The notes: generated by a model not told the origin, from the letters alone. A stretch of 32,000 nucleotides of DNA from Halogeometricum borinquense DSM 11551 (GCF_000172995.2 NC_014735.1:1-32000), one strand, 5' to 3'; positions 90 through 30,789 are shown, numbered from the stretch's first letter. Program-made: numbers and translations.

Positions 90-1040
90 TCACAGTGGAG
101 TCTCAACTGGAGATTCAACCACGGATTCAGATGACTCGGTCTCTGACTCGGTATACGCCGAAAAGATATCCTCTAGTGAGGCAGTCTCGGTCTCGAATCG
201 TTGTGGGGTAGCTCCCAAGCGGTCAAGATGGTTAAGCGCATCAAGATGACGTCCATGCGCGCACTGAACACGAAGCGTCGTGCCGCTGACCTCGAGGTTT
301 TCGATCCCGTCGAGTGTCGTCAACGAGTCGATATCGTCGGGGACGTGATCGACCGAAACCTGTAGTATGGTGTTGTCTCCGACTGCATTACGAAGCGAGT
401 CAATCGAATCAATCGCCAAAAGCGAGCCCTCATTGAGAATACCGACGCGATCGCAGACCGATTCCACTTGAGCAAGGCGATGGCTGGAAAAGAAGATTGT
501 TGCGCCCCGGGCGCGTTCGTCCCTGATGAATTCTCGCATCAACCGAATGCCGTTCGGGTCGAGCCCGGTCGTTGGCTCATCGAGCAACAGTAGATCGGGC
601 TCGCCGGCGGCTGCCATTGAAAGTAAGAGTCGCTGGCGCATCCCTCGAGAATAGCCAGTCGCGACGCGGTCGGCGTCTTCAAGTAGGCCAAACCGATCGA
701 GTAACGCATCGGGGTCGTCGTCAACGTTCCGAGAGTCAAGCTCGAACTCGACGTGGTCTCGGCCGGTCCAGTCAGGCATTACTTCGTATCCGTCTGGCAC
801 AACGCCGGTACGTTGACGAATTGCCGTCGCATTCTCTGTTGGATCAATCCCAAACACTGACGCCGACCCCGATGTCGGATAAATAAACCCGAGTAGGATG
901 TCGATTGTGGTAGATTTTCCAGAACCGTTGGGTCCCAGAAAGCCGAAGACTTCTCCGTTCTCGATGGACATCTCGAGCGAATCGAGCGCGGTGGTCTCAC
1001 CGTAACGTTTCGTTAACGAATGAGTTTCGATAGGATTCAT
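90..1040 (-). CDS. ABC transporter ATP-binding protein
   Basis: 316-aa ORF with Walker A GPNGSGKST, ABC signature YSRGMRQRL, Walker B LLLLDEPTTGLD and H-loop SSHRL. Acidic C-terminal tail. Confidence 0.9.
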   Translation of the reverse strand: MNPIETHSLTKRYGETTALDSLEMSIENGEVFGFLGPNGSGKSTTIDILLGFIYPTSGSASVFGIDPTENATAIRQRTGVVPDGYEVMPDWTGRDHVEFELDSRNVDDDPDALLDRFGLLEDADRVATGYSRGMRQRLLLSMAAAGEPDLLLLDEPTTGLDPNGIRLMREFIRDERARGATIFFSSHRLAQVESVCDRVGILNEGSLLAIDSIDSLRNAVGDNTILQVSVDHVPDDIDSLTTLDGIENLEVSGTTLRVQCAHGRHLDALNHLDRLGATPQRFETETASLEDIFSAYTESETESSESVVESPVETPL

Positions 1041-3679: not shown

Positions 3680-4470
3680 ATGCTCGCAGACCTGCTCAGC
3701 GAGTGCTTTGCCACGGATTTAGAAGAAGCATGGGAACGTGATCGGACGGCGACGTCCCAAACTCGCGACGCGAGTTTGTGGGCTCGAAAGACGCTTTCGT
3801 CTTTCGAACGTTGACGAGACGCGAAGCGTCTCGTTCGCACACCAGAAATCTCCGATTTCTGGGGACGCCCGTCAAGGCGTTCGCCGTCCAACTCCACGCG
3901 ATCGGCTGTTCACTCAGAGAGACAAAAGAAATTCTTCGATTGCTCGGTATTGAACGTTATTATCAACCTTTTTAGCAATAGGTACATTTGCTGGCTGACA
4001 GCGGTCATAACCCGTGAGGCGAAGCCGAAGCGGGTTGCAGTTGACGAGGCCGCTGTCAAAATCAATGGCGAGTGGTCTTGGTTGTACGCTGCAATAGACA
4101 CCGAGACAAAGCTGATTCTTGACGTCGAGTTGTTTGGACGTCATGGTACCGATCCGGCCGCTGCGTTATCCATCGACTCTCGGAGAAACACGATTTCTCA
4201 GACGCTGTGTTTCTTGTTGATGGCTACGGCTATCAGACTACCCTCTCTCGGTTAGGATCGAGCGGTCAGCTTGACTACGTTGAGCGAAACCTCATCGAAG
4301 AGTGGTTTCTGCTTCCATAATTCGTGTGGGCAATCATGCAAGCGCCCGCGAGTGATTCATTCAATTTGCGCAATACTATAACATCTAACGACTGCATCAA
4401 GTGCTCGATGGACGAACACCGGTTGAAGAGGTCACTATCCCATCTTCCAAGGTTGTGGGAAGCCACTAAC
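3680..4470 (+). pseudogene. Decayed IS6-family transposase gene
   Basis: Pieces in three frames: MLADLLSECFATDLEEAWERDRTAT; PVKAFAVQLHAIGCSLRETKEILRLLGIERYYQ; KPKRVAVDEAAVKINGEWSWLYAAIDTETKLILDVELFGRHGTDPAAA; IHRLSEKHDFSDAVFLVDGYGYQTTLSRLGSSGQLDYVERNLIEEWF; FIQFAQYYNI*RLHQVLDGRTPVEEVT. There are several frameshifts, in-frame stops and a 113-nt insertion. The family call rests on recalled similarity to haloarchaeal IS6 transposases. Confidence 0.85.
3755..3863. mobile_element. MITE-like array of four stem-loops inserted into the IS6 transposase ORF
   Basis: Stem-loops lie at 3756-3782 (imperfect), 3784-3807 (10-bp stem), 3814-3834 (9-bp stem) and 3842-3862 (9-bp stem). A GACG direct repeat flanks the array at 3751-3754 and 3864-3867. 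Removing 3755-3867 restores the reading frame. Confidence 0.5.
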
Positions 4471-12901: not shown

Positions 12902-13189
12902 ATGACCAAATCATCACAGGCGACCGACGACGGGACCGAGATCAGATCGGACTCGAAACGAATGAGGTCGATCCTCGCAGTCGTGGGGGTCGGCACACTG
13001 GTAATAGGGGCATGGAAACTCGTCGCCGGCAATCCCGTGACGGCCGGGTCGATGTTCGTGTTCACAACACTGTGTGTCGCAAATCTCCGCTCCGAAACCG
13101 TCCGCCGATGGATGGACGATCATCCGATCGTGGTGTTGATCGCACTCATTCCCGTGGCCGTCGTCGGTGTTGTCGCCGCGATGCCGTAA
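12902..13189 (+). CDS. Small membrane protein (about 3 TM)
   Basis: 95 aa: a charged N-terminus followed by three hydrophobic segments. Confidence 0.55.
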   Translation: MTKSSQATDDGTEIRSDSKRMRSILAVVGVGTLVIGAWKLVAGNPVTAGSMFVFTTLCVANLRSETVRRWMDDHPIVVLIALIPVAVVGVVAAMP

Positions 13190-13298
13190 CCGACTGAAAT
13201 AAGAAACGGCATCGGATTTTCGAGCGTCATCCTGAAGACTGACTCTCACACCCATTTCAGATATCACTGCTTTGTTGAATCCGATGACGGCGTGGGGA

Positions 13299-13830
13299 TC
13301 ACTGTTTGAGAGCTTGTTCGAGGTTGTGGACTGCGGCGGTCAACACGAGTTCGCGGAACTCGCGGTACCATGCGCGAGGGTGGACAGCGGGGCCGAACCG
13401 ACGCTTGATGGCCGAAAAGGCGGTCTCGGCCATCCAGCGCTGACCGTATAATTCGCTGTCCAACCGTGCGTTGTGGGCGTGATCGTACGCAGCGAACAGT
13501 CGATGGCGCAGCAAGGGCCGGACGCCCTCTGAACGGAGGGCGTCCCGGAGTGATTGGTCGTCATAGCCTTTGTCGCCGGCGAGAATCTCGATTTTTTCTC
13601 GGTGTTGCGAAGAGCGACTCGACGGCCAGTTTGGGTGTCGTGAAGCCAGTGTGCCGAGCAGTGACGACGACGTTCCTCACGCTCGCCGGCCAGCACATCG
13701 GGTTCGACCCACCCGACTAACCGGCTGTTCTCCGCTGGGTTCGCTCAGCGCGTAGCCGCTGCTCTCGCGTTCTCCCCCAGTTTTCGCGTGTTTCATCGGA
13801 CACTCGGTGTCGTCGCATCGAGATAATATC
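13299..13830 (-). pseudogene. N-terminally truncated, frameshifted DDE transposase (IS4/IS5 superfamily type)
   Basis: The C-terminal part is intact: EILAGDKGYDDQSLRDALRSEGVRPLLRHRLFAAYDHAHNARLDSELYGQRWMAETAFSAIKRRFGPAVHPRAWYREFRELVLTAAVHNLEQALKQ. Upstream, VVVTARHTGFTTPKLAVESLF lies in another frame, with the shift near the A-run at about 13585. No N-terminal domain is recognisable. Confidence 0.75.
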
Positions 13831-14370
13831 TCGCACCCCCTGATTTCCCGTCGAAGAACAGCGGAACGACCGGAGTGCCAACCGATTATTCAGTCACCTT
13901 TCCATCTTCTTTCTGTATCCAACTCATCCTCGACATTAGAAAAAGCCAATTTGCGTTTTACAGACGAAAAGAGAGGTCGTGCTCTAATTTAGATTCGATG
14001 TATTCCTGCTCTCCAGCTAAGCGATGTGGAGTCCCATCGCTACTCTTTGTTCAGTGCAGGTTTCAATACAGCAGAAACCGTACTTGGCTCGTGTAGCGAT
14101 CAGTTCCGCTGTCTACTCGGTCACAGCGCTCTAAACAATTATGGTACAGGTTTCAGCACCGGGGAAGTCTGTAGTGGCAAAGAAACTAAATTGATGAGTA
14201 GCAGTCTTATCTACAACTTCTTGGCGATACTCGAACAAGCGCCGCGGTATATTACGTACCATGGTTCCAATCCCCTCTCGAACACTCGTATCCGGGGTTC
14301 CGTTAACCGGGGATGTTTTCAATTTGCATTGGTTGTGAAATTATCCATCCCAAAGTAAATAACCGATCGC

Positions 14371-15264
14371 ATGACAACCAATTATCAGATGAGTCTCAGC
14401 ATACAAAATCTAGGAAAACGGTACACCGAAGACGTCTGGGGCGTTCGAAACATCGATCTTGAGTTAGATACCGGTGTTCACGGTCTTCTCGGACCGAACG
14501 GTGCTGGCAAGTCCTCGCTCATGCGGATGATTACGACCGTTATGGAACCGACAAAAGGGTCAATCAGGTGGAACGGCACGGACGTACTCGATTCGCCGGG
14601 AACGATCCGATCGGTTCTGGGCTACCTTCCGCAGGATTTCGGCGTGTATCCCGATTTGACATTGGAGGAGTTCCTCGAGTACGTCGGTGCGTTGCGGTCG
14701 GTGGACTCGAAGACCGTGGCCGCTCGTATCGACGAACTGATCGCGCTGACGAATCTGGAACAGGCTCGCGACCGTAAACTCAAGACCTTCTCCGGCGGAA
14801 TGCGTCAACGGGCAGGAATCGCCCAAGCGCTACTCAACGATCCGGGACTGTTGGTGGTCGACGAACCAACAGTCGGTCTCGATCCGGAGGAGCGTGTCAG
14901 ATTCCGCAATATCATCTCCGATCTGTCGTCAGACCGTGTTGTGATACTCTCAACACACATCGTACCGGACATTGAGGCCACAGCGAACACGATTGCCCTG
15001 CTGGACGACGGGGAACTACTCACCCACACTGATCCCGAGTCACTAATCAAGACTGTCAAAGGGAAGGTCTACACGTACACCACTGACCAGTCCAACCTCG
15101 ACAAGATCCGATCCGATCAGATTATCTCGGGCACTGTCAGTCGCTCGGATGGCATCGAACTCCGGGTGATAGCCGAGGAGCCACCGCATGAGAACGCACG
15201 TGTTGTCCCTCCAACGCTTGAAGATGCCTACCTCTGGCGTGTTGGCCCACAGGTGGCCCGATAG
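14371..15264 (+). CDS. ABC transporter ATP-binding protein
   Basis: Walker A GPNGAGKSS, Q-loop, signature FSGGMRQRAGIA, Walker B LLVVDEPTVGLD and H-loop STHIV, plus a C-terminal accessory domain. The stop is directly followed by the next ATG. Confidence 0.9.
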   Translation: MTTNYQMSLSIQNLGKRYTEDVWGVRNIDLELDTGVHGLLGPNGAGKSSLMRMITTVMEPTKGSIRWNGTDVLDSPGTIRSVLGYLPQDFGVYPDLTLEEFLEYVGALRSVDSKTVAARIDELIALTNLEQARDRKLKTFSGGMRQRAGIAQALLNDPGLLVVDEPTVGLDPEERVRFRNIISDLSSDRVVILSTHIVPDIEATANTIALLDDGELLTHTDPESLIKTVKGKVYTYTTDQSNLDKIRSDQIISGTVSRSDGIELRVIAEEPPHENARVVPPTLEDAYLWRVGPQVAR

Positions 15265-16869
15265 ATGCGCCAGATCTATCATGTGGCCCGAGCCGACTTT
15301 CTCCAGCGAGTCCGTTCGAGCCGACTGATCGCTTTGTTGGCGTTCGTTATATATCTCGGCTATCTCGTCAATACCGGGGAGATCGATCTCGTCTTTCAAC
15401 AGTCCGTGGCTGGTGGCGCCCTTAACAACTACCGTGGAGTGAATAACGCAGCCTGGATTGGCGCTAAAGCAGGGTTGACAGGGAGCTTCTTTGTGGTGTT
15501 CGTTGGGTTCTATCTGGTTAAGAATAGTCTATATCGTGACCGGTCCACAGAAGTCAGTGAACTCCTCGCATCGATGCCGATCTCGAATCCCCGATATCTG
15601 TTAGGAAAGTGGTTGAGCAATGGAGCGTACCTTGGATTAATTGTCAGCGTACTGGGATTGTCAGCCGTCGTTGTGCATGTAGTACACGGTGTCGGTCCCA
15701 CCAACCCGATCAAACTGCTCTTGCCAGTAGTACTATTGGCCATTCCGACTGCCTTTTTCATCGGTGGGGTTGCGCTGCTAGTCGAGACCGTTGAACCCCT
15801 GAACAACACCGCTGGCAACATCCTCTACTTTTTCGGCACGCTCGCGCTCATGAATGTTTTTTATACTGGGACGGTAGCAAACGGCGTCGTGTCCGGGATA
15901 ACCGGCTACTTCGATCCGTTTGGATATACTCCAATCTACGTAGCAATGTACGATTCGGTTCTGTCTATCGCTCCAAACTACACTGGTGGCGTACCGGCTT
16001 TCGGACCGATTTATGTAGAACAAACAATATTTACTTGGAGTGGAGGGGGATGGCCGCTATGGGTGTACCCACAGCGTGCCGGAATGATCGTCGCTGGGGT
16101 CAGTCTCACGGTCTTCGGTACTCTCACATTCAATAGATTCGACCCATCGAAAACAGGGTCGGGGAGGACCACATCACTGCTCCGACGGCTGTTGCCGGAG
16201 CGGTCGTCAACTGAGAGCGTGACTGAACCGCCAGCACCGACGGAGGTCACACTTACACCAGTCAAAACACGAACCGGTAGCGGTCTCTTCCGAATTCTTC
16301 TCGGCGAGTTCCGCATGACCCTGTCCAAGCTCCCGTGGTGGTGGTATCTAGGCGCAGTCGGGATTATTGCAGCCAGCTTAATCCGTCCACAAAATAGAGG
16401 CCCAATTCTACTAATAGCACTCATCTGGCCAATATTCGTCCTGTCGTCGATGGGAGTTCGCGCACAGCGCCATCGTATGGAACCGCTGATCTTCTCGTCC
16501 AACAGCGCGTACACGCAACTCTTCGCCGAGTGGATTGTTGGGGTGACAATCATCGCGGTGCTGGTTGGGAGCAGTATTGGTCTTACCGCCCTGTTGACCT
16601 CGACACCAGTGTTGTTGGGCTATGTAGCGGCGATACTCTTCGTTCCGTCACTTGCTTTAAGTGTCGGTATCTGGAGCGGAAGATCAGAACTATTCGAAGT
16701 GCTGTATCTTGTTATCTGGTTTGTCGGCCCGGCCAACGGACTAAAGCCCGTAGTGTTCACCGCAACGGAAGCTACGGCTCTGTCAACAGTGAGCGTTATT
16801 GTGTACATCTGTCTGGGGCTCTGCTTGTTCGTGGCTAGCTTCGTTCACCGCTCTCGACAGATGGTTTGA
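15265..16869 (+). CDS. Large polytopic ABC transporter permease
   Basis: 534 aa with many TM segments in two blocks separated by a Ser/Thr/Pro-rich loop. The ATG follows the ATPase stop codon with no gap. Confidence 0.8.
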   Translation: MRQIYHVARADFLQRVRSSRLIALLAFVIYLGYLVNTGEIDLVFQQSVAGGALNNYRGVNNAAWIGAKAGLTGSFFVVFVGFYLVKNSLYRDRSTEVSELLASMPISNPRYLLGKWLSNGAYLGLIVSVLGLSAVVVHVVHGVGPTNPIKLLLPVVLLAIPTAFFIGGVALLVETVEPLNNTAGNILYFFGTLALMNVFYTGTVANGVVSGITGYFDPFGYTPIYVAMYDSVLSIAPNYTGGVPAFGPIYVEQTIFTWSGGGWPLWVYPQRAGMIVAGVSLTVFGTLTFNRFDPSKTGSGRTTSLLRRLLPERSSTESVTEPPAPTEVTLTPVKTRTGSGLFRILLGEFRMTLSKLPWWWYLGAVGIIAASLIRPQNRGPILLIALIWPIFVLSSMGVRAQRHRMEPLIFSSNSAYTQLFAEWIVGVTIIAVLVGSSIGLTALLTSTPVLLGYVAAILFVPSLALSVGIWSGRSELFEVLYLVIWFVGPANGLKPVVFTATEATALSTVSVIVYICLGLCLFVASFVHRSRQMV

Positions 16870-16905
16870 GATTTGCTACTCTGAAGGGCGAAGCATTCGT
16901 CTCGA

Positions 16906-16911
16906 TTTTTT
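16906..16911 (+). terminator. Oligo-T tract downstream of the permease gene
   Basis: T6 run 37 nt after the stop at 16869. Archaeal termination commonly uses oligo-T tracts. Confidence 0.3.
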
Positions 16912-17128
16912 GAGTGGCTGGGGTTCAGTCCGTTCCACCGCTGGCACCGATACCCCCGAGCGCTCGCTACGAAGTAATTGCGGTCGGGAGTGTGCATCAA
17001 GAGTCAACAGACAGTGTGTGCATGGGACATATAAAAGGACGAATCCGGTTCGACAATATTTCTGTAATTTCTTTATCACTTTTCTCCTGGCTAGAATTAA
17101 TTACTTATCCGCCCATGGTCAAATCGTC

Positions 17129-17296
17129 ATGTCAAGTGACACTACCGCACTGAACGTCCAGTACAAAGACGAAGGCAACCTGACGAATGATGTCGGTACT
17201 CTCGACCTCACTGAAACTCACGAGTCGATAGAAACCGACGAGGTTGAAAAAAAGATGGACGACTGGGTGGATAGCTGCTTCGTCGCAAGCTGTTAA
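17129..17296 (+). CDS. 55-aa acidic peptide with a C-terminal Cys-containing hydrophobic end; candidate precursor peptide
   Basis: ATG at 17129 gives MSSDTTALNVQYKDEGNLTNDVGTLDLTETHESIETDEVEKKMDDWVDSCFVASC followed by the stop. It forms the tail of the tracked 165-aa ORF 16799..17296, whose upstream part is basic, Cys-rich and non-halophilic. An AT-rich region lies upstream, and a hairpin plus T-run lies downstream. Confidence 0.5.
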   Translation: MSSDTTALNVQYKDEGNLTNDVGTLDLTETHESIETDEVEKKMDDWVDSCFVASC

Positions 17297-17330
17297 ACGG
17301 CACCCATTTCATAGAGTCGAACGGCAAGAA

Positions 17331-17350
17331 CCTCCGCCTGCAGGCGGAGG
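17331..17350. terminator. Perfect GC-rich hairpin downstream of the small ORF
   Basis: CCTCCGCC-TGCA-GGCGGAGG, an 8-bp stem with a 4-nt loop, 35 nt after the stop codon. A T4 run follows at 17399-17402. Function unproven. Confidence 0.3.
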
Positions 17351-17711
17351 CTAAAGCCGGCCGAGTGGCAAACCGCGTCTGATCGTCTTGAACCGATCTT
17401 TTATACTAATATTTAATCTACAGGCTGCCCCATTAAAATGTAGGAATTATCATACCAGATCTGACTCCGATGATGATACCTGTGCCCGAAAATTGTGGTA
17501 ATCCACCAATTGGACTGCGAACCTGAAACTCCTACCGCTCAGAATTCCTCCGTTGCCACGGAAGAGAACAATTCAAGGTGATGATTCCTCCTACAGTATA
17601 AGAATTACCCGCGTCTCTTACAGTGGAGGTTACTTCTCTCCGAGAATACTTGAACAGTGTAAACACCAGACATGATTAATATAATAAGGACGTGGCCTGA
17701 ACCACGGTACG

Positions 17712-18968
17712 ATGGTAGTATTTGGCCTTTCCTTCGAAGGGTTCCCCCATTTTCCACTGAAAGAAGGCAATGACGGGTACCTTATTCCAGATGCATCAGT
17801 CGCTGAGCTATCTGAATGTCACAAGGAGGCTCTCAGTCAATCAGTCGCTACTGCGGTGGAAGCCGAATCGATGGGGTTCGAGTATATCGTTCATGCGGAA
17901 CACCACTCGGAGCTTGTGACGAACAACTCCCCGAACCCGATCCTGACACAAACCGCAATTGCACGAGAGACTCAGGAGATCCGGCTGCTTCAGATGGCGA
18001 ACATCCTCCCGTGGCACGAGCCAGTTCGTCTCGCCGAAATGCTCTCGATGCTAGATATTCTGAGTGACGGCCGGGTCGATGTTGGTGTCGGTGGCGGATC
18101 TCGCGATATTGCCACAGCGACACTCGGTCAGTATTGGGGTGGATCGTCGGCCCACGAACCAAAAAACGAGAAATCATTTGAAGAAAAATTTGAAATTCTG
18201 GTCAAGGCATGGACCGAAGATCTAGTCTCATACCACGGAGAGTTTCATCAGGTACCTCCGAGCTATACCGAACGGGAAATTAGCCATGACATCGCGTACT
18301 TTTCAGACAGTGTCTGTGAGTACGATCTTCACGACTACATCTCTAAAAAGAAAGACACGATAACGCTTGAGGGACTGCCAGTTATTCCACAACCGGAGCA
18401 GGAACCCCACCCACAGTTATGGCGACCGGCACTGTCATCCTCGTCGTCAACGTGGGCAGCACGTCGAGGGATCAACGTTTGTACCCATTTGTTAAGTATC
18501 TCCCAAACTAACGAAGTCGTCGACGCATACTACACCGCTGCCAAGGACGCTGAGTGGCCTGATCGTCAGACAGATTATACTGGGGAGGCGTTTAACTACG
18601 GATGGGATGCTCAGCGAAACCGAGGTGTTGGTATCATTATCTCCATGTTCAACACCGAAGTCGCCGACGACGGGGCGATTGAGCGATGGAAGCGCTCGTT
18701 CAAGCGCGATGAACAACAAAGAAGAAACGACCTCTCAGAGCCAATAAATGTCGATGAGCAGATTCAAGAACGGACAGCTCCCCTCTATGGGGATGCCGCT
18801 GAACTAATCAATGGGCTTGCAGAGGTGATCGAAGAGTGTGCGCTTGATGATGCGCTAATCATCTGTAATCCACACTCTGTCGGCCTTACACACGAAGAGC
18901 GACGAGAGCAGATACGGGCGTTCGCAGACGATGTGATGCCCTACTTCAGAGACGACCAGTATAAGTGA
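17712..18968 (+). CDS. Luciferase-like monooxygenase (LLM) family flavin/F420-dependent oxidoreductase
   Basis: 418 aa. The N-terminal TIM-barrel region is typical of LLMs (AESMGFEYIVHAEHH...RLLQMANILPWHEPVRLAEMLSMLDILSDGRVDVGVGGG...FEILVKAWTEDLVSYHGEFHQVPP). It is larger than typical family members because of insertions. Confidence 0.88.
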   Translation: MVVFGLSFEGFPHFPLKEGNDGYLIPDASVAELSECHKEALSQSVATAVEAESMGFEYIVHAEHHSELVTNNSPNPILTQTAIARETQEIRLLQMANILPWHEPVRLAEMLSMLDILSDGRVDVGVGGGSRDIATATLGQYWGGSSAHEPKNEKSFEEKFEILVKAWTEDLVSYHGEFHQVPPSYTEREISHDIAYFSDSVCEYDLHDYISKKKDTITLEGLPVIPQPEQEPHPQLWRPALSSSSSTWAARRGINVCTHLLSISQTNEVVDAYYTAAKDAEWPDRQTDYTGEAFNYGWDAQRNRGVGIIISMFNTEVADDGAIERWKRSFKRDEQQRRNDLSEPINVDEQIQERTAPLYGDAAELINGLAEVIEECALDDALIICNPHSVGLTHEERREQIRAFADDVMPYFRDDQYK

Positions 18969-19083
18969 ACGGTTGAGAGTGCAGATCCCCGGTAGAGTAA
19001 CAGACGGAATAATACATATACGAGAGCTTAGAATTGATTGACTGTCTAAAGGTGAAAGATCGAGAGCAGTTGCATGGTCCAGG

Positions 19084-19260
19084 TTAGTTGGTTGAAACAG
19101 ATTGCGAGCAATTGGAGCCACTGTCGGCGGGGTCAGAGATGAGCGTGTATTGCGAACGACTCAGTCCGGCATTGGAGTCTAAGACAATAACAGGCCGCCT
19201 GTAACAACGGTACGCCATCAACGATAAAGACTACCTCGGAAGCGCGACATTTTTTCAGAG
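19084..19260 (-). pseudogene. Remnant of the C-terminal end of a second IS6-type transposase
   Basis: The minus-strand frame reads KKCRASEVVFIVDGVPLLQAACYCLRLQCRTESFAIHAHL*PRRQWLQLLAICFNQLT. From memory, it resembles the C-terminal end of haloarchaeal IS6 (ISH14-like) transposases (a ...FLVDG...LQAAC... segment near a C-terminal ...WLQAF...NQL...). There is an internal deletion and an in-frame stop. Further decayed sequence probably extends toward about 19800. Confidence 0.45.
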
Positions 19261-20375
19261 TTCTTCGATATTTATGGCATCGGCCTGAGTCGTAAGCAAG
19301 GACAGATAGGTGTGAGAACCATTTTTGTTATCCACGATGCTTAAGCAAGTAACCCTGAACCTTCGAGCGGTATTCGTGACTGAGGAACTCTTAGCATACG
19401 GTGGGAAAAGGATGTTTTGAACCCCTAATGCTCTCGTCCTTGGTTGTTTCCTCGGGACTATGATAGCGTTTGACGAATTCGTCTATCGAATTAGGAAGAG
19501 ATAGCAGCCACACAGGATACCCCCAAGTAGATTTCGTAGCAGAGGTCAAGGTCAAAACTCGTTCTTCGTACTATCCGGCATTTCATACGCTTTTCCTGAA
19601 GATTCTCGCAGTAGCCAGGACACTAATCCTCCTAAACCCGATTTCCCCGCGTTATATGCAGTGAGCAGTTTGACCATCTCTCGACAGCGGTCTGGAAAGT
19701 ACTACTGCGCCGATAGAAGGGTTGACTAGCAGAAATTCTACGGGATCGACAATCCCAAGCGAGCCGTGAGACCGTAGGGTAGATATTGTATGATGATTCA
19801 GCAGAGCTTTTGAAAAATAATTCCAACAGAGATGGAATATTAAACCTGAACTATAAAATTCCACTGTGACAATAATAATATTGTAATGCTGGAATGAGTA
19901 CATTCTCATAATCGTGACGAACCCACCGAGACATAATGAGGACGGGAGACCAGCAGATCAGTCTCAGACAAACAGTTGCTCCATCACCATTCAAGAACAG
20001 GATAGTAATACCGGTATCGGGATTTAATCTGAGAATATATGATTGGATTCGGCCGTAAGAGCGCTCAGATCTCACTAATCGTACGCCACTCATAACGAGG
20101 AAGACACATAAGAAGTGATACACATTTAGCACCTTGCTATTTCATAATATGACTGTCATTATTAGCTGTATAATTACGCTGTTTGTCAAAGAAAGACATC
20201 ACTCAACCGAAATAGAATAAAAACAGTACCCTAGCAAGTGGCCAATCCGCTATTCTCAAAGGTAAATCCGCACTATCCACGCATCAAAGCGGTGCGTAGT
20301 CCGGTTACCGACTCCGAAACTATCCCATCGAGAGACTGTTTTCAGCGCGGTGAGTGCGGAGAACAGAAAAAGAGA

Positions 20376-20894
20376 CTACTCGAATAGCTCAGCGTGGCGC
20401 TCAGCAAGTTCCGTGTATTCCGTTGCAGAGTACTTGCTGAGAAGTTCCTCGATATCGATACCGGCCTCAGACAGTGGAGTAACTTCCGCGGGAACACCCC
20501 GAACGAACGACTCCGGCGGAATATCGCGCCCCTCGGGAACAACACAGCCAGCGGCAACGATACTCCGCTCACCGACCGTCACATCCGTATTTATCGTGGC
20601 ATTGAATCCGATGAGCGTGCTGTCTTCGACGACGGCCTCATTAAGCACCGAGCCGTGACCAACCATCACCCGATTGCCGATAGTTGAGGCGTGAAGGACA
20701 GCGTTATCAGCAACGTGTGATTCCGCCCCAATTCGGACCGAGCCGATATCACCCCGGAGAACAACCCCAGGCCAGACACTTGCGTTCGCAGCAACCCGAA
20801 CATCACCGACAAGCGTGGACATCTGGCTCACATGAGCATCCGCGTCGATGGTCGGCGTGTCACCTTCGAACTCGTAGATCCTCGGATCGTTCAT
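20376..20894 (-). CDS. Gamma-carbonic-anhydrase-like / left-handed beta-helix (hexapeptide repeat) protein
   Basis: Start MNDPRIYEFEGDTPTIDADAHVSQMSTLVGDVRV..., with hexapeptide repeats throughout and the His residues typical of the gamma-CA/PaaY family. 172 aa counted from the internal ATG at 20894. Confidence 0.88.
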   Translation of the reverse strand: MNDPRIYEFEGDTPTIDADAHVSQMSTLVGDVRVAANASVWPGVVLRGDIGSVRIGAESHVADNAVLHASTIGNRVMVGHGSVLNEAVVEDSTLIGFNATINTDVTVGERSIVAAGCVVPEGRDIPPESFVRGVPAEVTPLSEAGIDIEELLSKYSATEYTELAERHAELFE

Positions 20895-21320
20895 AGTGAT
20901 TGGTACGTGAGATACCGCATTAAGTATTGTTCGTGTATCACGAATTAAGACACGCGACAACGGTACTGGTTCTACATTCATACACGGCAGACTGAAAGCT
21001 CGTGTACGAAGTGCGCGTACCGAGATAAGTGTGCGAACTGGAGTAGTTTCTTTGCGTGTGTGACAGTCAGTAGTAGTTACTGAGAGGACAAGACGATAAC
21101 GAACGAACGCCACACCATGCAAGGAAACACCGTGATATCCGGTTTGTTTTAGTACCTCGCTGACAGTAATCGATGCACGAGTGGAGCACATCAGCACCAC
21201 ACAACGACCGGCCGTACTCTCCTGCGACAAACCCGAGGTAATCCGCAGTAAGAGCCTACTGCCACGGCAAACTCGAATTGACAGATCGTCCTTCACTCTC
21301 GCCTTTTCTTACCACTGAAG

Positions 21321-22208: not shown

Positions 22209-22763
22209 ATGAACTCCAACTCCGGTGGAGAGAGTCCACCAGGCGGCGACTGGGGATTCGAACAACTGAGAGAAGCATACATGGAGGGATTCGAACGGAA
22301 CATCGAAGCCCAGTCGGCGTTCGTGGAGGCATGGCAGGACGCGGTTGACGAAACGATGCTGTCGGAGGAGGCGATGCAAGATAGTATCGAAGGCTACGTC
22401 GGCGCGTACGAAGTCTGGATGGACGCGGCTGAGGCCTCTCTCTCACGAATGAGTAGTGCGTACGAAGGAAAGGACGTCGATATTTCCAACTTCAGAGATA
22501 TCTGGCTCGAAGCCGCCAACGACGCGTTCAAAGAGATTGCGTCCACACAGGGGTTCGCTACCATGACGGGCCAAACGGTCGAAGAATCATTCGGCCTCAG
22601 AGGAGACTTCGGTGAAATACAACGGGAGACGTTACGAAACCTCGGCGTTCCGACCGAGTCGGACATCGACGAAATCGGAGAACGACTCCTCGAATTCGAG
22701 CGACGACAGCACAAGGTAGAGCAGAAGCTAGACGAAGTCCTCAACGCACTCGAAGAGGAATGA
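22209..22763 (+). CDS. phaE: PHA synthase subunit PhaE (class III, haloarchaeal type)
   Basis: 184 aa containing ...[17 protein letters not shown]...[16 protein letters not shown]...[26 protein letters not shown], which matches haloarchaeal PhaE by recall. ATGA overlap with phaC at 22760-22763. Confidence 0.85.
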
Positions 22764-24100
22764 ATCCGTACAGTGCTCCGTTAGAGTTCCAAGCGCAAAC
22801 GTGGGAGGACGCTGCCGAGGCCATCGAACAGATGACCGGAGCGCCCGACCAGCTGGAGCGAATGCAATCGGTTGAGGTCGGACAGACACCAAGCGAGGTT
22901 GTCTACTCGGAGAACAAACTCGACTTACTGCATTACGAACCGCGGACCGACGAGCAACTTGACGTTCCGATACTCATTGTCTACGCGCTGATTAATCGGC
23001 CGTACATCCTCGACTTGCAACCGAACCGGAGCGTCGTACGGACACTTCTCGACCAGGGTCTCGATGTCTACCTCATCGACTGGGGAGAGCCCTCTCGGCT
23101 CGATGCCAGTCTCACCCTTGACGACTACGTCAACCGGTACATCGAGAACTGTGTCGATGTCGTTCGTGACCGGTCCGACCAAGACTCCATCAACGTCCTC
23201 GGTTACTGTATGGGAGGAACAATGAGTGCCATGTACACCGCGCTCCATCCCGAGAAGGTACGCAATCTCGGGCTGATGGCGTCCGGACTCTGCTTCAACG
23301 ACACTGGTGGCACCTTGGAGTTTTGGGGCGACGAAGAGTACTACAATCCGGAAGCGGTAACCGACGTATCCGGAAACGTTCCATCGGAGTTTCTCGACGT
23401 TGGGTTCGCACTCATGGACCCAGTCGATAACTACCTCACGAAGTACATCCGTCTGTTCGAGAATCTCGACAACGACAGCTTCGTGGAGAACTTCGCCCGA
23501 ATGGAAAAATGGCTTTCCGATGGGATCGACGTCGCCGGCGAGACGTACAACCAGTTCCTACAGGACATCTATCAGGACAACAAACTGGTGAACGGCGAAC
23601 TCATGCTCGGCGAACAGCACGTTGATCTGGCGAACATCGACATGCCGGTGATACAGATTATCGGCGAACACGACCATCTGATTCCCCCTGAGTCGAGTAT
23701 CCCGTTCAACGATGCGATTGCCAGCGATGACACCATGGTCATCGAGTTCCCCACCGGCCACATCGGGCTCTCCGTCTCGAGCAAGTCCCACGCAGAACTG
23801 TGGCCGCAAGTTTGCGACTGGTACGTACAGCGGTCACAACACGAAGAGACGGAGAGTACCTCAGCGGAAGCAACCGACGAGCCAGCGACCGAGAGTGCAG
23901 CGGTCGAGGAGTCGGCCGAGCTGGAGGACATCACCGGAATCGGTCCGGCATATGCTACGCGGTTGCGCGAATCAGGTATCGAAACCTTCGAAGATCTCGC
24001 CTCAGCAGAGGTGTCGATAGCCGAACAAATAGACGTCTCTGAAAGCCAGTTCCAGCAGTGGATCGACGAGGCCAACGAACGTCTCAACAAGAACGACTAA
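22760..24100 (+). CDS. phaC: PHA synthase catalytic subunit PhaC (class III) with C-terminal extension
   Basis: Alpha/beta-hydrolase fold with lipase-box GYCMGG (Cys150), Asp305 in [10 protein letters not shown] and His334 in PTGHIG. An acidic linker and helix-hairpin-helix-like [24 protein letters not shown] lie at the C-terminus. Confidence 0.95.
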
Positions 24101-24123
24101 TCGTTCTTCTCTCCCATCGATCA

Positions 24124-24128
24124 TTTTT
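24124..24128 (+). terminator. Oligo-T tract after phaC
   Basis: T5 run 24 nt after the phaC stop, in the 90-nt gap between convergent genes. Confidence 0.25.
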
Positions 24129-24190
24129 ACGTTTCAGACCGGACCGGACACACCGACGTATCGAGTGTCTGCGTTTGAATGCCTATTGGC

Positions 24191-24700
24191 TTACTCCGAC
24201 AGTTGCTCAGAGGGCATGCGAAAGCCCTCGAAGCGGTCGAACCAGTCACTGCCCTCTCTCAATGCCTCAATACAGTCATCGACTGTGAACACGTCGTCAC
24301 GAGCGCACGGGAACACTCCCTTGAGAGAGTCATCCTCGTAGACAGCGAGACAGACGACCGGCAAGACGAGTACTTCGTACGTCTCGTTCATCTCCAGCGG
24401 CGATAGTTCGTTCTCCTGGAACGCCGGTTCTAACGTCATCCCATTCTCCGCTGCCCAAGACTGGAACTCGCGAACGGTATCCAGATTCCCCATCGCAGTG
24501 GTAACTGAACAAGAGGGGGAGGTGTTGATCGACCGACCCCACACATCGACTGTGTACTCGTTGATTTTGCCGTCAGACTCAAGTTGGTCTAGGCGCTCGA
24601 TAATCGATTCTGGTCTATCGTACGCACCACGTGGCATCTGTTCGCGGATACGAACTTCGACACGACGCTGTGACTGGTCCACTGTCCCTCTCATACTCAT
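24191..24700 (-). CDS. Hypothetical protein, function unknown
   Basis: 169-aa ORF of acidic composition, convergent with phaC. No motif recognised. Confidence 0.65.
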   Translation of the reverse strand: MSMRGTVDQSQRRVEVRIREQMPRGAYDRPESIIERLDQLESDGKINEYTVDVWGRSINTSPSCSVTTAMGNLDTVREFQSWAAENGMTLEPAFQENELSPLEMNETYEVLVLPVVCLAVYEDDSLKGVFPCARDDVFTVDDCIEALREGSDWFDRFEGFRMPSEQLSE

Positions 24701-24836
24701 ACACTCTCAATCAAGTCTAATAGTACTTTTTCTAATTCACCGGTACTATCGAACACCTTGTGATACATTTTCACAGTATCATATGAGAAGTGGTACACAG
24801 AAAAAGATATGCCGGAGAAACAGAACGCGCCGCCAC

Positions 24837-25502
24837 CTAGAACGTTTCAGTGTACTCCGGCGGTTCATCGATAAGAACAATAGCTTCACCATCAGCAAGC
24901 TTCTCGCCGGATTCGTTATGAACGACCGTATCGAGTCGATATCTACTCTCTCCGAATGCTTCTGTGATTTCACAGGTCGCAGTCAACGTCCCGCCGGGTT
25001 CCGCAGCGGAGAGGAATTCGAGATCCTGCGAGAGATATATCGTTACGCCGGGAAATCGTGCCAAAGCGGCACTTATCAAGCCCGAGATGAGGGTCCCGTG
25101 GACAATCGGGGTCCCAAACCGTGTGCGCTTGGCGAATTCGTCGTCGAGATGTAACGGATTCGTATCACCGCTGATCGTGGCGAACGCACTGACATCCTCA
25201 CTGGAGAGTTGCTTCGTGAACGAGACGCGCTCACCAACACCCAGTTCCTCATACCGGTTCACAGAGCGCTCAAACGACCATTGATGTCGTGTCTCGAGTA
25301 TACTATCCAATTCAACGCCCTCATCGTCTACGTGAGACGTCTGACCGCCCAACGATGCGATAAAAGCGTGGTTCGCCTCGATAAGTCCGTTGAAAAGGTA
25401 CCCAGAACTTCGCTGAACGTGTTCTGAGGCTCGAAGCCACGCGCTGCTTAGCGACTGTGGCTGATATGCAGGGGTGGTTTGGCTGTGTTCGTCACCAGAC
25501 AT
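24837..25502 (-). CDS. maoC: MaoC-like (R)-specific enoyl-CoA hydratase / dehydratase with N-terminal extension
   Basis: Hot-dog fold motifs FATISGDTNPLHLDDEFAKRTRFGTPIVHGTL. About 85 extra N-terminal residues of unknown function. Confidence 0.88.
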   Translation of the reverse strand: MSGDEHSQTTPAYQPQSLSSAWLRASEHVQRSSGYLFNGLIEANHAFIASLGGQTSHVDDEGVELDSILETRHQWSFERSVNRYEELGVGERVSFTKQLSSEDVSAFATISGDTNPLHLDDEFAKRTRFGTPIVHGTLISGLISAALARFPGVTIYLSQDLEFLSAAEPGGTLTATCEITEAFGESRYRLDTVVHNESGEKLADGEAIVLIDEPPEYTETF

Positions 25503-25721
25503 AGGTAACCGTCAGGTCTCCCAAAACAAAAACCCATATGACCGTTTAGTGTGTCTGGCGTGTCTTTTTACTGGATGGTAAGCCATAACAACTGTCAACA
25601 ATTCTAATAGGTATCCCGTCAGCACGAGTTAATCTCTCTCTTCACCGGTAGACTGTCCATTTCGATATAGTCGAAACGTGAAGTAAGATTTTTGTGGGTT
25701 GTGCGCTAGAGAATAACACAC

Positions 25722-25892
25722 ATGATGATGGGTAATAAATGCACCGTTTGCGGCGAACGATTAACAGAGAAGCACGTGCGTGATTGTACGATATGTGGGT
25801 GTCAGATGCACAACCAGTGCATGGAGTACTTCCAGACGTACGAGTGCCAGACGTGCGGTGATGAAACGTGGATCGGAGCAGTCGAACTATGA
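25722..25892 (+). CDS. 56-aa double zinc-finger micro-protein
   Basis: MMMGNKCTVCGERLTEKHVRDCTICGCQMHNQCMEYFQTYECQTCGDETWIGAVEL. It carries CxxC pairs (CTVC, CTIC, CQTC) plus further Cys/His. Below the 60-aa cutoff of the ORF track. Confidence 0.5.
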   Translation: MMMGNKCTVCGERLTEKHVRDCTICGCQMHNQCMEYFQTYECQTCGDETWIGAVEL

Positions 25893-25984
25893 CACCCACA
25901 GGACACCTTCCACGAGACGTCGATCCACGAGTTGCCTCTAGTTTGATTAGTCCATGCTTCGATCAGTGATTCCGCAATCCGACA

Positions 25985-26443
25985 TTAAATCAGTTCGAAT
26001 CGGTATCCATCCCACTCTTGACTCTCTGCGACCCGAATACCGCTTGCTGAGTCACGGAGCGAACCCACGTATACAGGCCGGACTTCGTCGCCGATGGCCA
26101 CATCAACTGACATCTCCTCGTCGGTCCCTGATCCATCATCGAAATCGCCAGCGGTCGCCAACTGCCCAATCGCTCGAACAGATTCACCGTCGATATCAAA
26201 TTCAACGATAGCGACCGGGTTCGGACGGCGGACTCCCGACGGAGTCGCAGTACTGACAGTCCACGTGAGGACCGTCGCAGTGTACTCACTGAGATCAATC
26301 ATCTCAACCGAAGCACCTCCGTTCGGTCCAATCGGATGTTCCGGATACGTGATGCTCCCGTCGGGGTATCGGAACGCCTTCATCGGAGGCTGTGCGTCGT
26401 GATTATCGCTCGTGCTCGAATCGTCGTTCAGTTCGTGGCTCAT
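25985..26443 (-). CDS. OB-fold (DUF35-type) small subunit of the haloarchaeal beta-ketothiolase
   Basis: 152 aa. Its start overlaps the stop of the thiolase gene by 4 nt. The OB-fold-like region is ...TVLTWTVSTATPSGVRRPNPVAIVEFDIDGESVRAIGQL. Two-subunit thiolases (BktB/PhaA alpha plus beta) are known from Haloferax mediterranei. Confidence 0.8.
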   Translation of the reverse strand: MSHELNDDSSTSDNHDAQPPMKAFRYPDGSITYPEHPIGPNGGASVEMIDLSEYTATVLTWTVSTATPSGVRRPNPVAIVEFDIDGESVRAIGQLATAGDFDDGSGTDEEMSVDVAIGDEVRPVYVGSLRDSASGIRVAESQEWDGYRFELI

Positions 26444-27597
26444 GCTTGTCCCTCCATAATGGTCGTAATAACGCAGTTCCCAAATCCACCCACGTTACAC
26501 GTCAAGCCGACATCGGCATCCACCTGTCGTGGTCCCGCATCGTTCGTAACCTGTTTGTGGATTTCGTACGCCTGTGCGACTCCCGATGCGCCGAGGGGAT
26601 GTCCCTTGGATTTCAGTCCACCTGAGGTATTGATTGGTAGGTCACCGTCACGGTGGGTGATACCGTCCTCGACCGCCTTCCATCCCTCGCCCTTCTCGAA
26701 GAAGCCGAGATCTTCGGACTGAAGGAACTCGAGGATGGAGAACATATCGTGCAGTTCCGCCACGTCGATATCGCCGGGGTTCCGGCCGGCCATCTCGTAA
26801 GCGATGTTACCTGATTCGACAACGCCGCGCATCGTTGTCGGGTCCGAACGCTCGTGGACGACGTGTGTGTCCGTCGCGCCGCCAACACCGGTGACGACCG
26901 AGTACTCGTCTGTGTACTCGCGGGCGACCGACTCCGGACAGAACAGTAGCGCTGCACTCCCGTCCGAAATCGGACAGAAGTCGTACAAGCGGAGCGGGTC
27001 AGCGATGACGGGTGCTTCAAGAGCGTCTTCGAGCGTTATTTCCTTGCGGAACTGAGCGTGGGGGTTATCGACACCGTTTGCGTGGTTTTTCACCGCAACC
27101 CTCGCTAAACTCTCACGTGGAGCGTCGTACTCGTGGAGGTAACGCCGAGCCGTGAGACCAGCGAAGGTAGGGAGTGTAATGCCGTGTTTGTACTCAACCG
27201 GATGAGTAATCGAGGCAATAATATCTGTTGTGTCTGCAGTTGATCGATGTGTCATCTTCTCGCCGCCGACGAGAAGCGTCATCTCTGAGGCACCCGAGGC
27301 GATAGATTGCCACGCGGCATAAACTCCTGCACCACCCGACGACGAGGTTTGATCGATTCGCGTGGTGTACGCTGGGAGCATCGAAAGGTCGTGTGCGAGT
27401 GCGTTGGGGATGCCAGTCTGTCCCTCGAACTCCCCGCTGGCCATGTTCGAGACGTAGAGGTGATCGACAGAATCGGGGCTCACCCCGACATCGTCGAGAC
27501 AGGCCTCACCGGCTTCCGCCAATAGGTCGAGGATAAACTGTCCTTCACGATTGCCAAACTGCGTCATCGACGCGCTAATAACAGCTACGCGTTCCAT
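26440..27597 (-). CDS. Thiolase-like catalytic subunit (beta-ketothiolase alpha subunit)
   Basis: The start MERVAVISASMTQFGNREG at 27597 is typical of archaeal thiolases. It has the thiolase fold with C-terminal NTSGGLKSKGHPLGASG and CNVGGFGN motifs. The longer ORF reaching 27705 is probably an over-extension. Confidence 0.9.
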   Translation of the reverse strand: MERVAVISASMTQFGNREGQFILDLLAEAGEACLDDVGVSPDSVDHLYVSNMASGEFEGQTGIPNALAHDLSMLPAYTTRIDQTSSSGGAGVYAAWQSIASGASEMTLLVGGEKMTHRSTADTTDIIASITHPVEYKHGITLPTFAGLTARRYLHEYDAPRESLARVAVKNHANGVDNPHAQFRKEITLEDALEAPVIADPLRLYDFCPISDGSAALLFCPESVAREYTDEYSVVTGVGGATDTHVVHERSDPTTMRGVVESGNIAYEMAGRNPGDIDVAELHDMFSILEFLQSEDLGFFEKGEGWKAVEDGITHRDGDLPINTSGGLKSKGHPLGASGVAQAYEIHKQVTNDAGPRQVDADVGLTCNVGGFGNCVITTIMEGQA

Positions 27598-28039
27598 ACT
27601 CCTGCATGCTATTGGGTCCATCATGAACGTTTGGGCTAGCTCAATTTCGATTCGATCAATCGATACTTCGAACAGGCCGCCCGTGATCTGTGGACAGCCC
27701 CTCATCCAAGAGAATATGATTGAGAGATATTAAATATTGGATATTAGATATGTTTATTATGTCACAACATGAGGTTGTACATTCAACAGAGGTCGGAAAG
27801 TCATGTACAAGCTACTCAACGTGAGAATGAAGTCCACAACCAACCACGGCTGTAAACACATACTAGGAATAGGGAGACATCCATAGCCACGGGAGGATAT
27901 ACCATCACATCTGGCATAATGCTTATTAACTACTCGTAAGTAGAAACACAATGGATGGGACAAAAGTGTCTGTACCGTCCGGATAGGGCCGTCTCTGTCC
28001 TACTCGCAAACATCAAAACAGGGACAATAATCGAAATCC

Positions 28040-28783
28040 ATGAACACCAATAAACGAACCTGCGTTATCACCGGCGCATCCAGAGGCATCGGGCGTGCGA
28101 TCACGAAGGAACTCGGACAATCCGGCGCAAACGTCATCGTCAACTATCGGTCATCAGAGTCGGCCGCATACGATGTCGCTGAGTCCATCGAAGAAAACGG
28201 GGGAACTGCGGTCCCAGTGCAAGCAGACGTTTCAGACATATCACAAGTTAAGGCGATGCGCGATACCGTACACGGCGAGTTCGGTTCGATAGACGTTCTC
28301 GTCAACAACGCCGGTATCACAGTCGACAAGACGTTCACGAACATGACCGAAGCGGACTGGAAACAAGTCATAGATGTCAACCTCGGCGGCGTATTCAACT
28401 GTACGAAAACGTTCTACGAGGATATTAAGAAGGCCAACGAGGGGAGACTAATCAATATCTCGAGCGTCATCGGCAAACAGGGGAACTACGGGCAGTCCAA
28501 CTACGCGGCGAGTAAAAGTGGCATGCTCGGCTTTACGCGTTCTATCGCACTGGAGCTGGCATCGTCCGGGTCCACTGCAAACTGTGTCGCCCCCGGATAC
28601 ACCCGAACCGACATGGTCGATGACGTCCCCGAAGATATTCAAGACAAACTCCGGTCAAAGATTCCCCTGAATCGGTTCGCGGAGCCAGAAGAAATCGCGA
28701 ACGTCGTCCGATTTCTGGCCAGCGAGGAGTCGTCCTACATGACCGGAGAGGTAATCGACGTGAACGGTGCGATCGACCTCTGA
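28040..28783 (+). CDS. phaB: SDR-family 3-oxoacyl / acetoacetyl-CoA reductase (PhaB/FabG type)
   Basis: [10 protein letters not shown] cofactor motif, NNAG, and catalytic S...YAASK. Divergent from the thiolase operon. The phaB symbol rests on context only. Confidence 0.85.
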
Positions 28784-28793
28784 ATCTACATCG

Positions 28794-30789
<1,996 letters not shown>

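Follow-up and report, generated by a model that had tools for sequence, protein, structure and literature searches.

Gene content of the region

We analysed positions 14,371 to 18,968 of a 32,000-nt stretch of DNA from Halogeometricum borinquense DSM 11551 (part of contig AOHT01000044.1; this whole stretch is referred to as the window), for which an earlier note had proposed an insertion sequence (IS)-bracketed cassette and a candidate halocin-like locus for a ribosomally synthesised and post-translationally modified peptide (RiPP). The region carries four genes on one strand, encoding an ATP-binding cassette (ABC) ATPase, a permease, a 55-aa peptide and a luciferase-like (LLM) flavin-dependent oxidoreductase. 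They lie where the earlier note had placed them. The locus is not a new RiPP class. We lean towards reading it as a mosaic of a mobile ABC module and an orphan, probably non-producing, fragment of a lanthipeptide cluster that consists of a LanA-type precursor and an LLM enzyme. The features of the region are as follows.

13267-13671, minus strand: IS5-family insertion sequence remnant, 80-93% nucleotide identity to 8 haloarchaeal plasmids
14371-15264, plus strand: ABC ATPase (PF00005, E=2e-30) of the DrrA/ABC-2 exporter type
15265-16869, plus strand: fused 534-aa ABC-2 permease (PF12679 over residues 7-204)
16886-16910, plus strand: hairpin (16886-16902) and T6 tract, likely terminator of the ABC operon, within the block common to plasmid pHM300
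17093-17107, plus strand: putative TATA-like box, AT-rich, some 29 nt before the start codon of the peptide, picked by eye from the sequence
17129-17296, plus strand: open reading frame (ORF) of a 55-aa LanA-like precursor, MSSDTTALNVQYKDEGNLTNDVGTLDLTETHESIETDEVEKKMDDWVDSCFVASC, with the core DSCFVASC at its extreme C-terminus
17317-17364, plus strand: stable hairpin (minimum free energy -39.4 kcal/mol, z=-2.56)
17676-17687, plus strand: putative TATA-like box, some 30 nt before the LLM start codon, assigned from sequence only
17712-18968, plus strand: intact 418-aa LLM flavin-dependent oxidoreductase (PF00296, E=1.6e-33) of a LanM-associated clade, 46-54% identical to LLMs encoded beside LanM
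18969-20375, no strand: stretch of 1.4 kb in which no gene is detectable and the claimed IS6 remnant was not detected

Several details of the earlier description were confirmed. The ATPase and the permease directly abut (15264/15265), with the start of the ATPase placed 18 nt further in by the NCBI annotation, giving 291 aa. The T6 tract does follow the permease and is preceded by the hairpin at 16886-16902. The small Cys-ended ORF is a gene in GenBank as well (C499_14000, hypothetical protein), and the LLM gene begins 415 nt downstream of it. The spacers are AT-rich, with a GC fraction of 0.45-0.48 compared to 0.49-0.55 in the genes. The TATA-like box in front of the peptide suggests a separate, leaderless transcript. 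Downstream of the peptide, a perfect palindrome, CCTCCGCCTGCAGGCGGAGG, lies at 17331-17350, 35 nt past the stop codon, and a small hairpin with CTTTTAT occupies 17381-17404, 3' of the palindrome hairpin. A tRNA-like fragment was suspected near the palindrome and was not supported by ARAGORN; Rfam and tRNA scans of the window gave no matches.

The description as an IS-bracketed cassette fared less well. On the left, the dead transposase is real: the ORF at 13299-13514 encodes the C-terminal 71 aa of a DDE transposase (PF01609 DDE_Tnp_1, E=4.7e-6), and the counterparts of the remnant are annotated as IS5 family transposase in two of the eight plasmids. On the right, the dead IS6-type remnant that was said to begin at 19084 could not be recovered by Pfam (no match at E<=1 among 10 six-frame segments, 18855-20141), by blastn of 18969-20400 against the plasmid collection, or by tblastn of the joined minus-strand segments (19084-19570). 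No terminal inverted repeats bracketing the region were found either. With an IS remnant at the left end only and no such repeats, the region is not supported as an IS-bracketed cassette or as a composite element bounded by IS copies.

As a separate observation, a 25-nt direct repeat, GTGACGGCCGGGTCGATGTT[C/G]GTGT, occurs at 13037-13061 and 18064-18088 (24 of 25 positions identical, flanks unrelated). One copy is within a small called ORF (12902-13189) and the other within the LLM gene (codons SDGRVDVGV), so that everything from the IS5 remnant through the ABC pair and the peptide ORF up to and including the first third of the LLM gene lies between them. Two matches were seen in none of 100 shuffles.

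The LLM oxidoreductase belongs to a LanM-associated clade

The LLM protein scores 116.9 bits against PF00296, above the cutoff of 27.9. Its AlphaFold2 model has a pLDDT of 89.8 and matches LuxA, RslO1 and others with a Foldseek probability of 1.0, which places it in the TIM-barrel LLM superfamily. The nearest folds and sequences are those of two-component monooxygenases dependent on flavin mononucleotide (FMN), namely RslO1 (7bip), 2i7g, LuxAB and diketocamphane monooxygenase, with the F420 enzymes ranking below them. It does not fall into a named F420-dependent LLM or MsnO8 subfamily: the best NCBIfam match, TIGR03558, reaches 84.2 bits against a cutoff of 166.95, and the F420 models are far below theirs. 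No second LLM was found in the window.

In a search of 5.8 billion proteins, the LLM had about 57 relatives at E<=1e-50 and 60 at E<=1e-10, the best being 54% identical. A metagenome scan with an LLM profile gave only distant LLMs (approximately 25% identity) among the matches listed. For ten relatives at 43-54% identity we retrieved the genomic surroundings; these relatives correspond to nine distinct loci and one 1.9-kb contig carrying the LLM alone (L108; L numbers denote the loci that we examined). A lanthionine synthetase gene, LanM (DUF4135 + LANC_like), is encoded within 6 kb of the LLM in eight of the nine loci: Haladaptatus cibarius (L006), Natronobiforma cellulositropha (L005/L008), the metagenome-assembled genome (MAG) QS_1_68_20 (L009, whose LanA is the same as that on ENA contig L101) and the metagenomic contigs L102, L103, L104, L106 and L107. 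The ninth, L105, is uninformative on LanM, as its contig measures 6.1 kb and breaks off 243 nt beyond the LanA. The LanM/LLM loci usually also encode an exporter of the major facilitator superfamily (MFS) and often an Eis-like acetyltransferase. Among the relatives of 41% identity or less (L010-L019), none has a LanM within 10 kb and the neighbours are heterogeneous. A neighbour-joining tree separates the two groups, and the window LLM is inside the LanM-associated clade.

The link between the LLM and the peptide had been regarded as the weakest point of the proposal. It is instead the best-supported part. A grouping of the LLM with housekeeping enzymes had been named as grounds for rejecting the RiPP link, and both the tree and the LanM contexts fail to give such grounds.

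Two observations on the related clusters can be added. Tandem LLM duplicates of the same clade are present in the LanM clusters of L006 (6001-8654) and L104 (108-2748), which may point to two separate redox steps or to a LuxAB-like heterodimer; the window LLM is 46-48% identical to the two tandem LLMs of H. cibarius. At L106 (2664-5797), LanM is called as two separate ORFs, one with DUF4135 (651 aa) and one with LANC_like (393 aa), which would be either a split synthetase or a frameshift, adjoining an S9 peptidase and an ABC_membrane-type exporter.

The 55-aa peptide and a family of SCxxxSC precursors

The 55-aa ORF has the layout of a leader and core precursor, with an acidic leader and a Ser/Cys core, and it ends ...WVDSCFVASC*, that is, with an SCxxxSC motif directly at the stop codon. 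Its GC1/2/3 values (0.52/0.34/0.61) are gene-like, compared to flat values in intergenic DNA. Used as a single query, the peptide retrieved only itself, both in tblastn against the plasmids and in the search of 5.8 billion proteins, and it has no Pfam or NCBIfam match. Nothing in these searches resembled halocins of the HalC8, HalS8 or HalH4 type, and the halocin label was dropped.

The relatives of the LLM proved more informative. At seven loci, ORFs of 37-49 aa adjacent to LanM have SCxxxSC, or a motif close to it, at the C-terminus or near it. The H. cibarius precursor is MSATSMPTNDLKAQFEDKYARDEPTIDELEHDAAAPDSCGFNSCNTQLQ (WP_267879589.1); N. cellulositropha has three copies, ending ...DSCWSSSC(N/GA); the QS_1 MAG precursor is ...KDSCGSESCNDGVSE and that of L107 is ...KDSCVEDSCSNNC. 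The L104 precursor ends ...VVISCGSASC*, and those of L102 and L105 end ...SCDACSCT and ...SCNQCTCM, respectively. The gaps next to LanM in L102 and L103 hold no LanA candidate ORF. A profile search without word index over 1.84 billion proteins added 11 further family members, several of which stop exactly at the second Cys, like the window peptide. Altogether there are approximately 20 distinct members of a common design, with the leader MS..L[KR]xQFExxY[AS]RxEP and the core SCxxxSC (or a near variant) within about 6 residues of the stop, and the core motif is kept in 17 of 18 aligned members. One member has already been caught by automated mining: the supplement of PMC12144867 gives the H. 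cibarius precursor as a predicted lanthipeptide. We found no mention of LLM enzymes in the archaeal lanthipeptide papers that we consulted, and the LLM-linked SCxxxSC precursor family therefore appears undescribed as such.

Among 23,210 six-frame segments from 1.01 Mb of DNA, only 11 contain SC.{3}SC in the last 13 residues; eight of these belong to LanM/LLM clusters and two to the background, and the remaining one is the window ORF. The chance of such a segment occurring within 1 kb of the window LLM is p~0.007, with an upper bound of 0.02. The window ORF also starts with MS, and its L-x-x-Q-[FY] element aligns with that of the family; an LLM of the LanM-associated clade follows it. We infer its homology to the LanA family from motif, position and context, not from sequence statistics alone, and consider it quite probable that the ORF is a divergent member of the SCxxxSC LanA family. 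The earlier suggestion of a RiPP precursor (most likely) and a RiPP tailoring enzyme is thus upheld by the LanM-clade context and the shared SCxxxSC core.

The ABC pair is a separate mobile module

A block of 2.57 kb (14349-16917) has 88.9% DNA identity to plasmid pHM300 of Haloferax mediterranei. The similarity begins 22 nt upstream of the ATPase ATG and stops 48 nt past the permease stop codon, just beyond the terminator hairpin, so that the block contains the ABC pair and its terminator only. The encoded proteins are 94% (ATPase) and 89% (permease) identical to the pHM300 copy. The phaEC genes, which lie a few kb from the block, have only 69.8% identity to their pHM300 counterparts, from which we conclude that the ABC block moved recently and as a unit. 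On pHM300, the pair (HFX_RS15530/15525) is next to a sugar ABC operon and a racemase gene, and no small peptide, LLM or LanM is nearby. The two-gene module also occurs on plasmids of Halobacterium salinarum, Salinibaculum, Natribaculum and Bacillus thuringiensis and on pHM500, with 55-66% (ATPase) and 28-39% (permease) identity to the window. At the seven other plasmid loci its neighbours vary, and neither the peptide nor LanM is among them.

The ABC pair also does not belong to the dedicated lantibiotic transporters LanFEG or LanT. Against the lantibiotic-protection model TIGR03740, the ATPase scores 141.7 bits where the cutoff is 309.75; all of its NCBIfam matches fall below their cutoffs, the pair has no C39 peptidase domain, and its homologues at the seven other loci are not linked to LanM or LanA. 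Judged by these sequence relationships, the ABC pair is an independently transferred, self-contained exporter operon with its own terminator, unrelated to the peptide-LLM unit. The proposal of dedicated export or immunity is therefore not retained.

On pHM500 of Hfx. mediterranei (L110, 4126-7676), a paralogous ATPase and a 529-aa permease are followed by a 342-aa LLM on the same strand, in a window-like order. We considered a conserved ABC-LLM linkage and rejected it: the pHM500 LLM is of another subfamily (29% identity over 168 aa). An LLM is adjacent to the module neither at the five other newly examined plasmid contexts nor on pHM300, and the pHM500 arrangement was accordingly treated as coincidence.

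Absence of LanM and partner genes from the window

The earlier note had reported no lanthipeptide synthetase, and this holds for LanM: tblastn of the window with two haloarchaeal LanMs gave a best E of 0.22, with no match near the locus. An MFS exporter or acetyltransferase gene or remnant was likewise not found by tblastn of the window, and no pseudogene of LanM, MFS exporter or acetyltransferase was found there. No Halogeometricum plasmid is among the LanM tblastn matches listed, or among the tabulated genera, for the plasmid collection. For the complete genome (GCA_000172995.2), a published antiSMASH table gives two terpene regions, a single region of the type containing a RiPP recognition element (RRE), one RiPP-like region and one siderophore region, and no lanthipeptide region. 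A class II lanthipeptide cluster is defined by a LanM encoded in it. Since the window has none, we class the locus as an orphan fragment or variant and not as a member of these clusters. The expectation of a chemistry unlike the described classes is also not borne out: the relatives are ordinary class II lanthipeptide clusters, and the window merely has no synthetase.

Proposed history and mechanism

The region would consist of two unrelated units within a low-GC, IS-scarred stretch of the H. borinquense chromosome. One unit (14349-16917) would be a horizontally and recently acquired ABC-2 exporter operon. The other (approximately 17090-18968) would be an orphan piece of a haloarchaeal class II lanthipeptide cluster of one particular, uncharacterised family, with a LanA-type precursor that has its SCxxxSC core at the C-terminus and with the LLM tailoring enzyme of that family. 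In the complete clusters, LanM would dehydrate Ser and add Cys thiols to form one or more thioether rings, one of which is likely Cys(i)-Ser(i+4), as in sallan; this would fit the SCxxxSC spacing. The LLM would then carry out a flavin-dependent redox step on the modified core. As both sequence and the AlphaFold model are closest to FMN-dependent monooxygenases, monooxygenation of the FMN type (S-oxidation of the thioether, or hydroxylation) would be favoured, with a reduction of dehydroalanine like that of LxmJ as the alternative. An MFS pump or another transporter would export the product. In H. borinquense, where LanM and the MFS exporter are missing, the window peptide could not become a lanthipeptide, and in all likelihood the pair makes no product and is a remnant, or else results from a partial transfer.

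Weighing of alternative explanations

Some results weigh against a synthetase-less LanA-LLM fragment. When the window peptide is left out of the hidden Markov models, it still comes first among the 957 segments of the window, with E-values that are not significant (1.1 with 7 sequences, 0.23 with 18) and an alignment that covers the core only. The leader motif L[KR]xQFExxY[AS]RxEP is not preserved, as YARxEP is missing and LNVQY alone aligns, and the leader has an 18-aa insertion relative to the family. The LLM has not decayed: of 69 columns with a conservation of 90% or more among 34 relatives, it keeps 68. This would not be expected of a gene long out of use, and it suggests either a recent loss of LanM (or a recent partial transfer) or a different role or substrate of the enzyme. 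The genome-wide absence of LanM is taken solely from the antiSMASH table. These E-values and the missing leader motif speak for an explanation by chance, in which the ORF is non-functional, the LLM is a stand-alone metabolic oxidoreductase and the likeness to LanA is coincidental. It would also agree with the lack of homologues outside the motif family and with the many LLM paralogues that haloarchaea hold in varied contexts (L010-L019). We consider it unlikely, given the low probability of finding the motif at the stop codon next to an LLM of the matching clade, the aligned MS start and L-x-x-Q-[FY] element, the gene-like GC periodicity and the strong hairpin downstream.

The intact LLM and peptide ORF, the latter with its gene-like codon-position GC, the TATA-like boxes approximately 29-30 nt upstream of both start codons and the common strand of the four genes could also be read, in essence as in the earlier note, as a functional RiPP locus independent of LanM, in which the LLM alone modifies the Cys/Ser C-terminus, for instance by oxidation, and the ABC-2 transporter exports the product or gives immunity. 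Some related LanM clusters (L008, L102, L103 and L106) do have ABC transporters. However, these are of other families: tblastn with the window permease gave nothing in L008 at E<=1e-8, and identity between the ATPases is only 31-32%. The ABC pair has a separate origin and its own terminator and travels elsewhere with neither peptide nor LanM, a LanM accompanies the LLM clade in all eight informative loci, and we know of no precedent for an LLM as the sole maturing enzyme on such a core. Such a locus is therefore decidedly unlikely. We give slightly less credence still to an autonomous two-gene module of LanA-like peptide and LLM, with oxidative chemistry on the SCxxxSC core and the product leaving through the co-located ABC-2 exporter; if it were true, full conservation of the LLM in a genome without LanM would be a sign that the enzyme is still in use and not that the loss was recent. 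Bacterial LanMs that act in trans on multiple unlinked precursors are known, for example in the prochlorosins, and a lanthionine synthetase elsewhere in the H. borinquense genome might in the same way modify the peptide. This is very improbable, considering the lack of a lanthipeptide region in the antiSMASH table, the lack of a Halogeometricum plasmid among the LanM matches and tabulated genera, and the lack in the window peptide of the leader motif that is presumably recognised by the LanMs of the family. On the whole, we retain the mosaic of a mobile ABC module and an orphan LanA-LLM fragment.

Other features of the window

A second, unrelated and divergent ABC-2 pair is at 90-2117, in which the ATPase (90-1040, minus strand) has a DrrA C-terminal domain and the permease (1161-2117) has 318 aa. 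Approximately 500 nt at 3808-4309 resemble, in inverted orientation, pHM300 (L001, 1659-2160) with 76% identity, unannotated in both. At 20376-21296 on the minus strand, the mechanically called ORF has 306 aa compared to 172 aa in GenBank (hexapeptide-repeat transferase); its N-terminal 130 residues have no domain match and are probably non-coding. A polyhydroxyalkanoate/fatty-acid-type cluster spans 22209-30338, with phaE, phaC, an HTH_63 regulator, a MaoC dehydratase, a thiolase with its OB-fold partner, a short-chain dehydrogenase/reductase (SDR) reductase and a carboxyltransferase. With the PADLOC defence models, the window had no matches other than generic P-loop ones.

Significance

The speculative picture of a new RiPP class is replaced by a testable and more ordinary one, that of a synthetase-less class II fragment beside an unrelated mobile ABC module. 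The wider by-product is perhaps more useful, namely a coherent family of very short haloarchaeal precursors that travel with a dedicated LLM clade. Archaeal lanthipeptides have been characterised only recently, and an expression system exists in Hfx. volcanii H1424/pTA1228 (PMC12144867), so that the SCxxxSC/LLM family gives direct access to what may be a new modification made after ring formation. A natural control that lacks LanM would be available in the H. borinquense pair.

Comparison with known systems

The ABC pair has the same organisation as the two-gene ABC-2 module of haloarchaeal megaplasmids (pHM300, pHM500, H. salinarum) and of B. thuringiensis, in which an ATPase of approximately 290 aa is directly followed by a fused permease of approximately 520-550 aa, and it differs in its neighbours alone. 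For the LLM, the comparison is with tailoring enzymes of bacterial lanthipeptide pathways. GarO of actagardine is an LLM-family enzyme that forms a sulfoxide. LxmJ reduces dehydroalanine to D-alanine in an F420H2-dependent manner in a bacterial lanthipeptide pathway (PMC8498797), and the birimositide pathway has a tailoring enzyme of the LLM family (PMC10676316). All three are, like the window LLM, luciferase-like TIM-barrel proteins; they are encoded inside lanthipeptide clusters and act after ring formation. The likeness is at the level of the Pfam family, with the window LLM folding nearest to FMN-dependent monooxygenases.

Among known systems, the peptide-LLM unit comes closest to the class II lanthipeptide clusters of haloarchaea, which include those of the archalans, ciblans and sallans (PMC10105419, PMC12144867). 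In sallan a Cys1-Ser5 thioether has been shown, and its Cys(i)/Ser(i+4) spacing is shared with the window core. The closest specific case is the uncharacterised biosynthetic gene cluster r2c4 of Haladaptatus cibarius D43 (LanM HL45_RS12075 and predicted LanA WP_267879589.1). Unlike r2c4, the window lacks both LanM and an MFS exporter, its leader is without FExxYARxEP and 18 aa longer, and its LanA is upstream of the LLM on the same strand. The two have in common the acidic leader, the short Ser/Cys core DSCxxxSC and the LLM clade.

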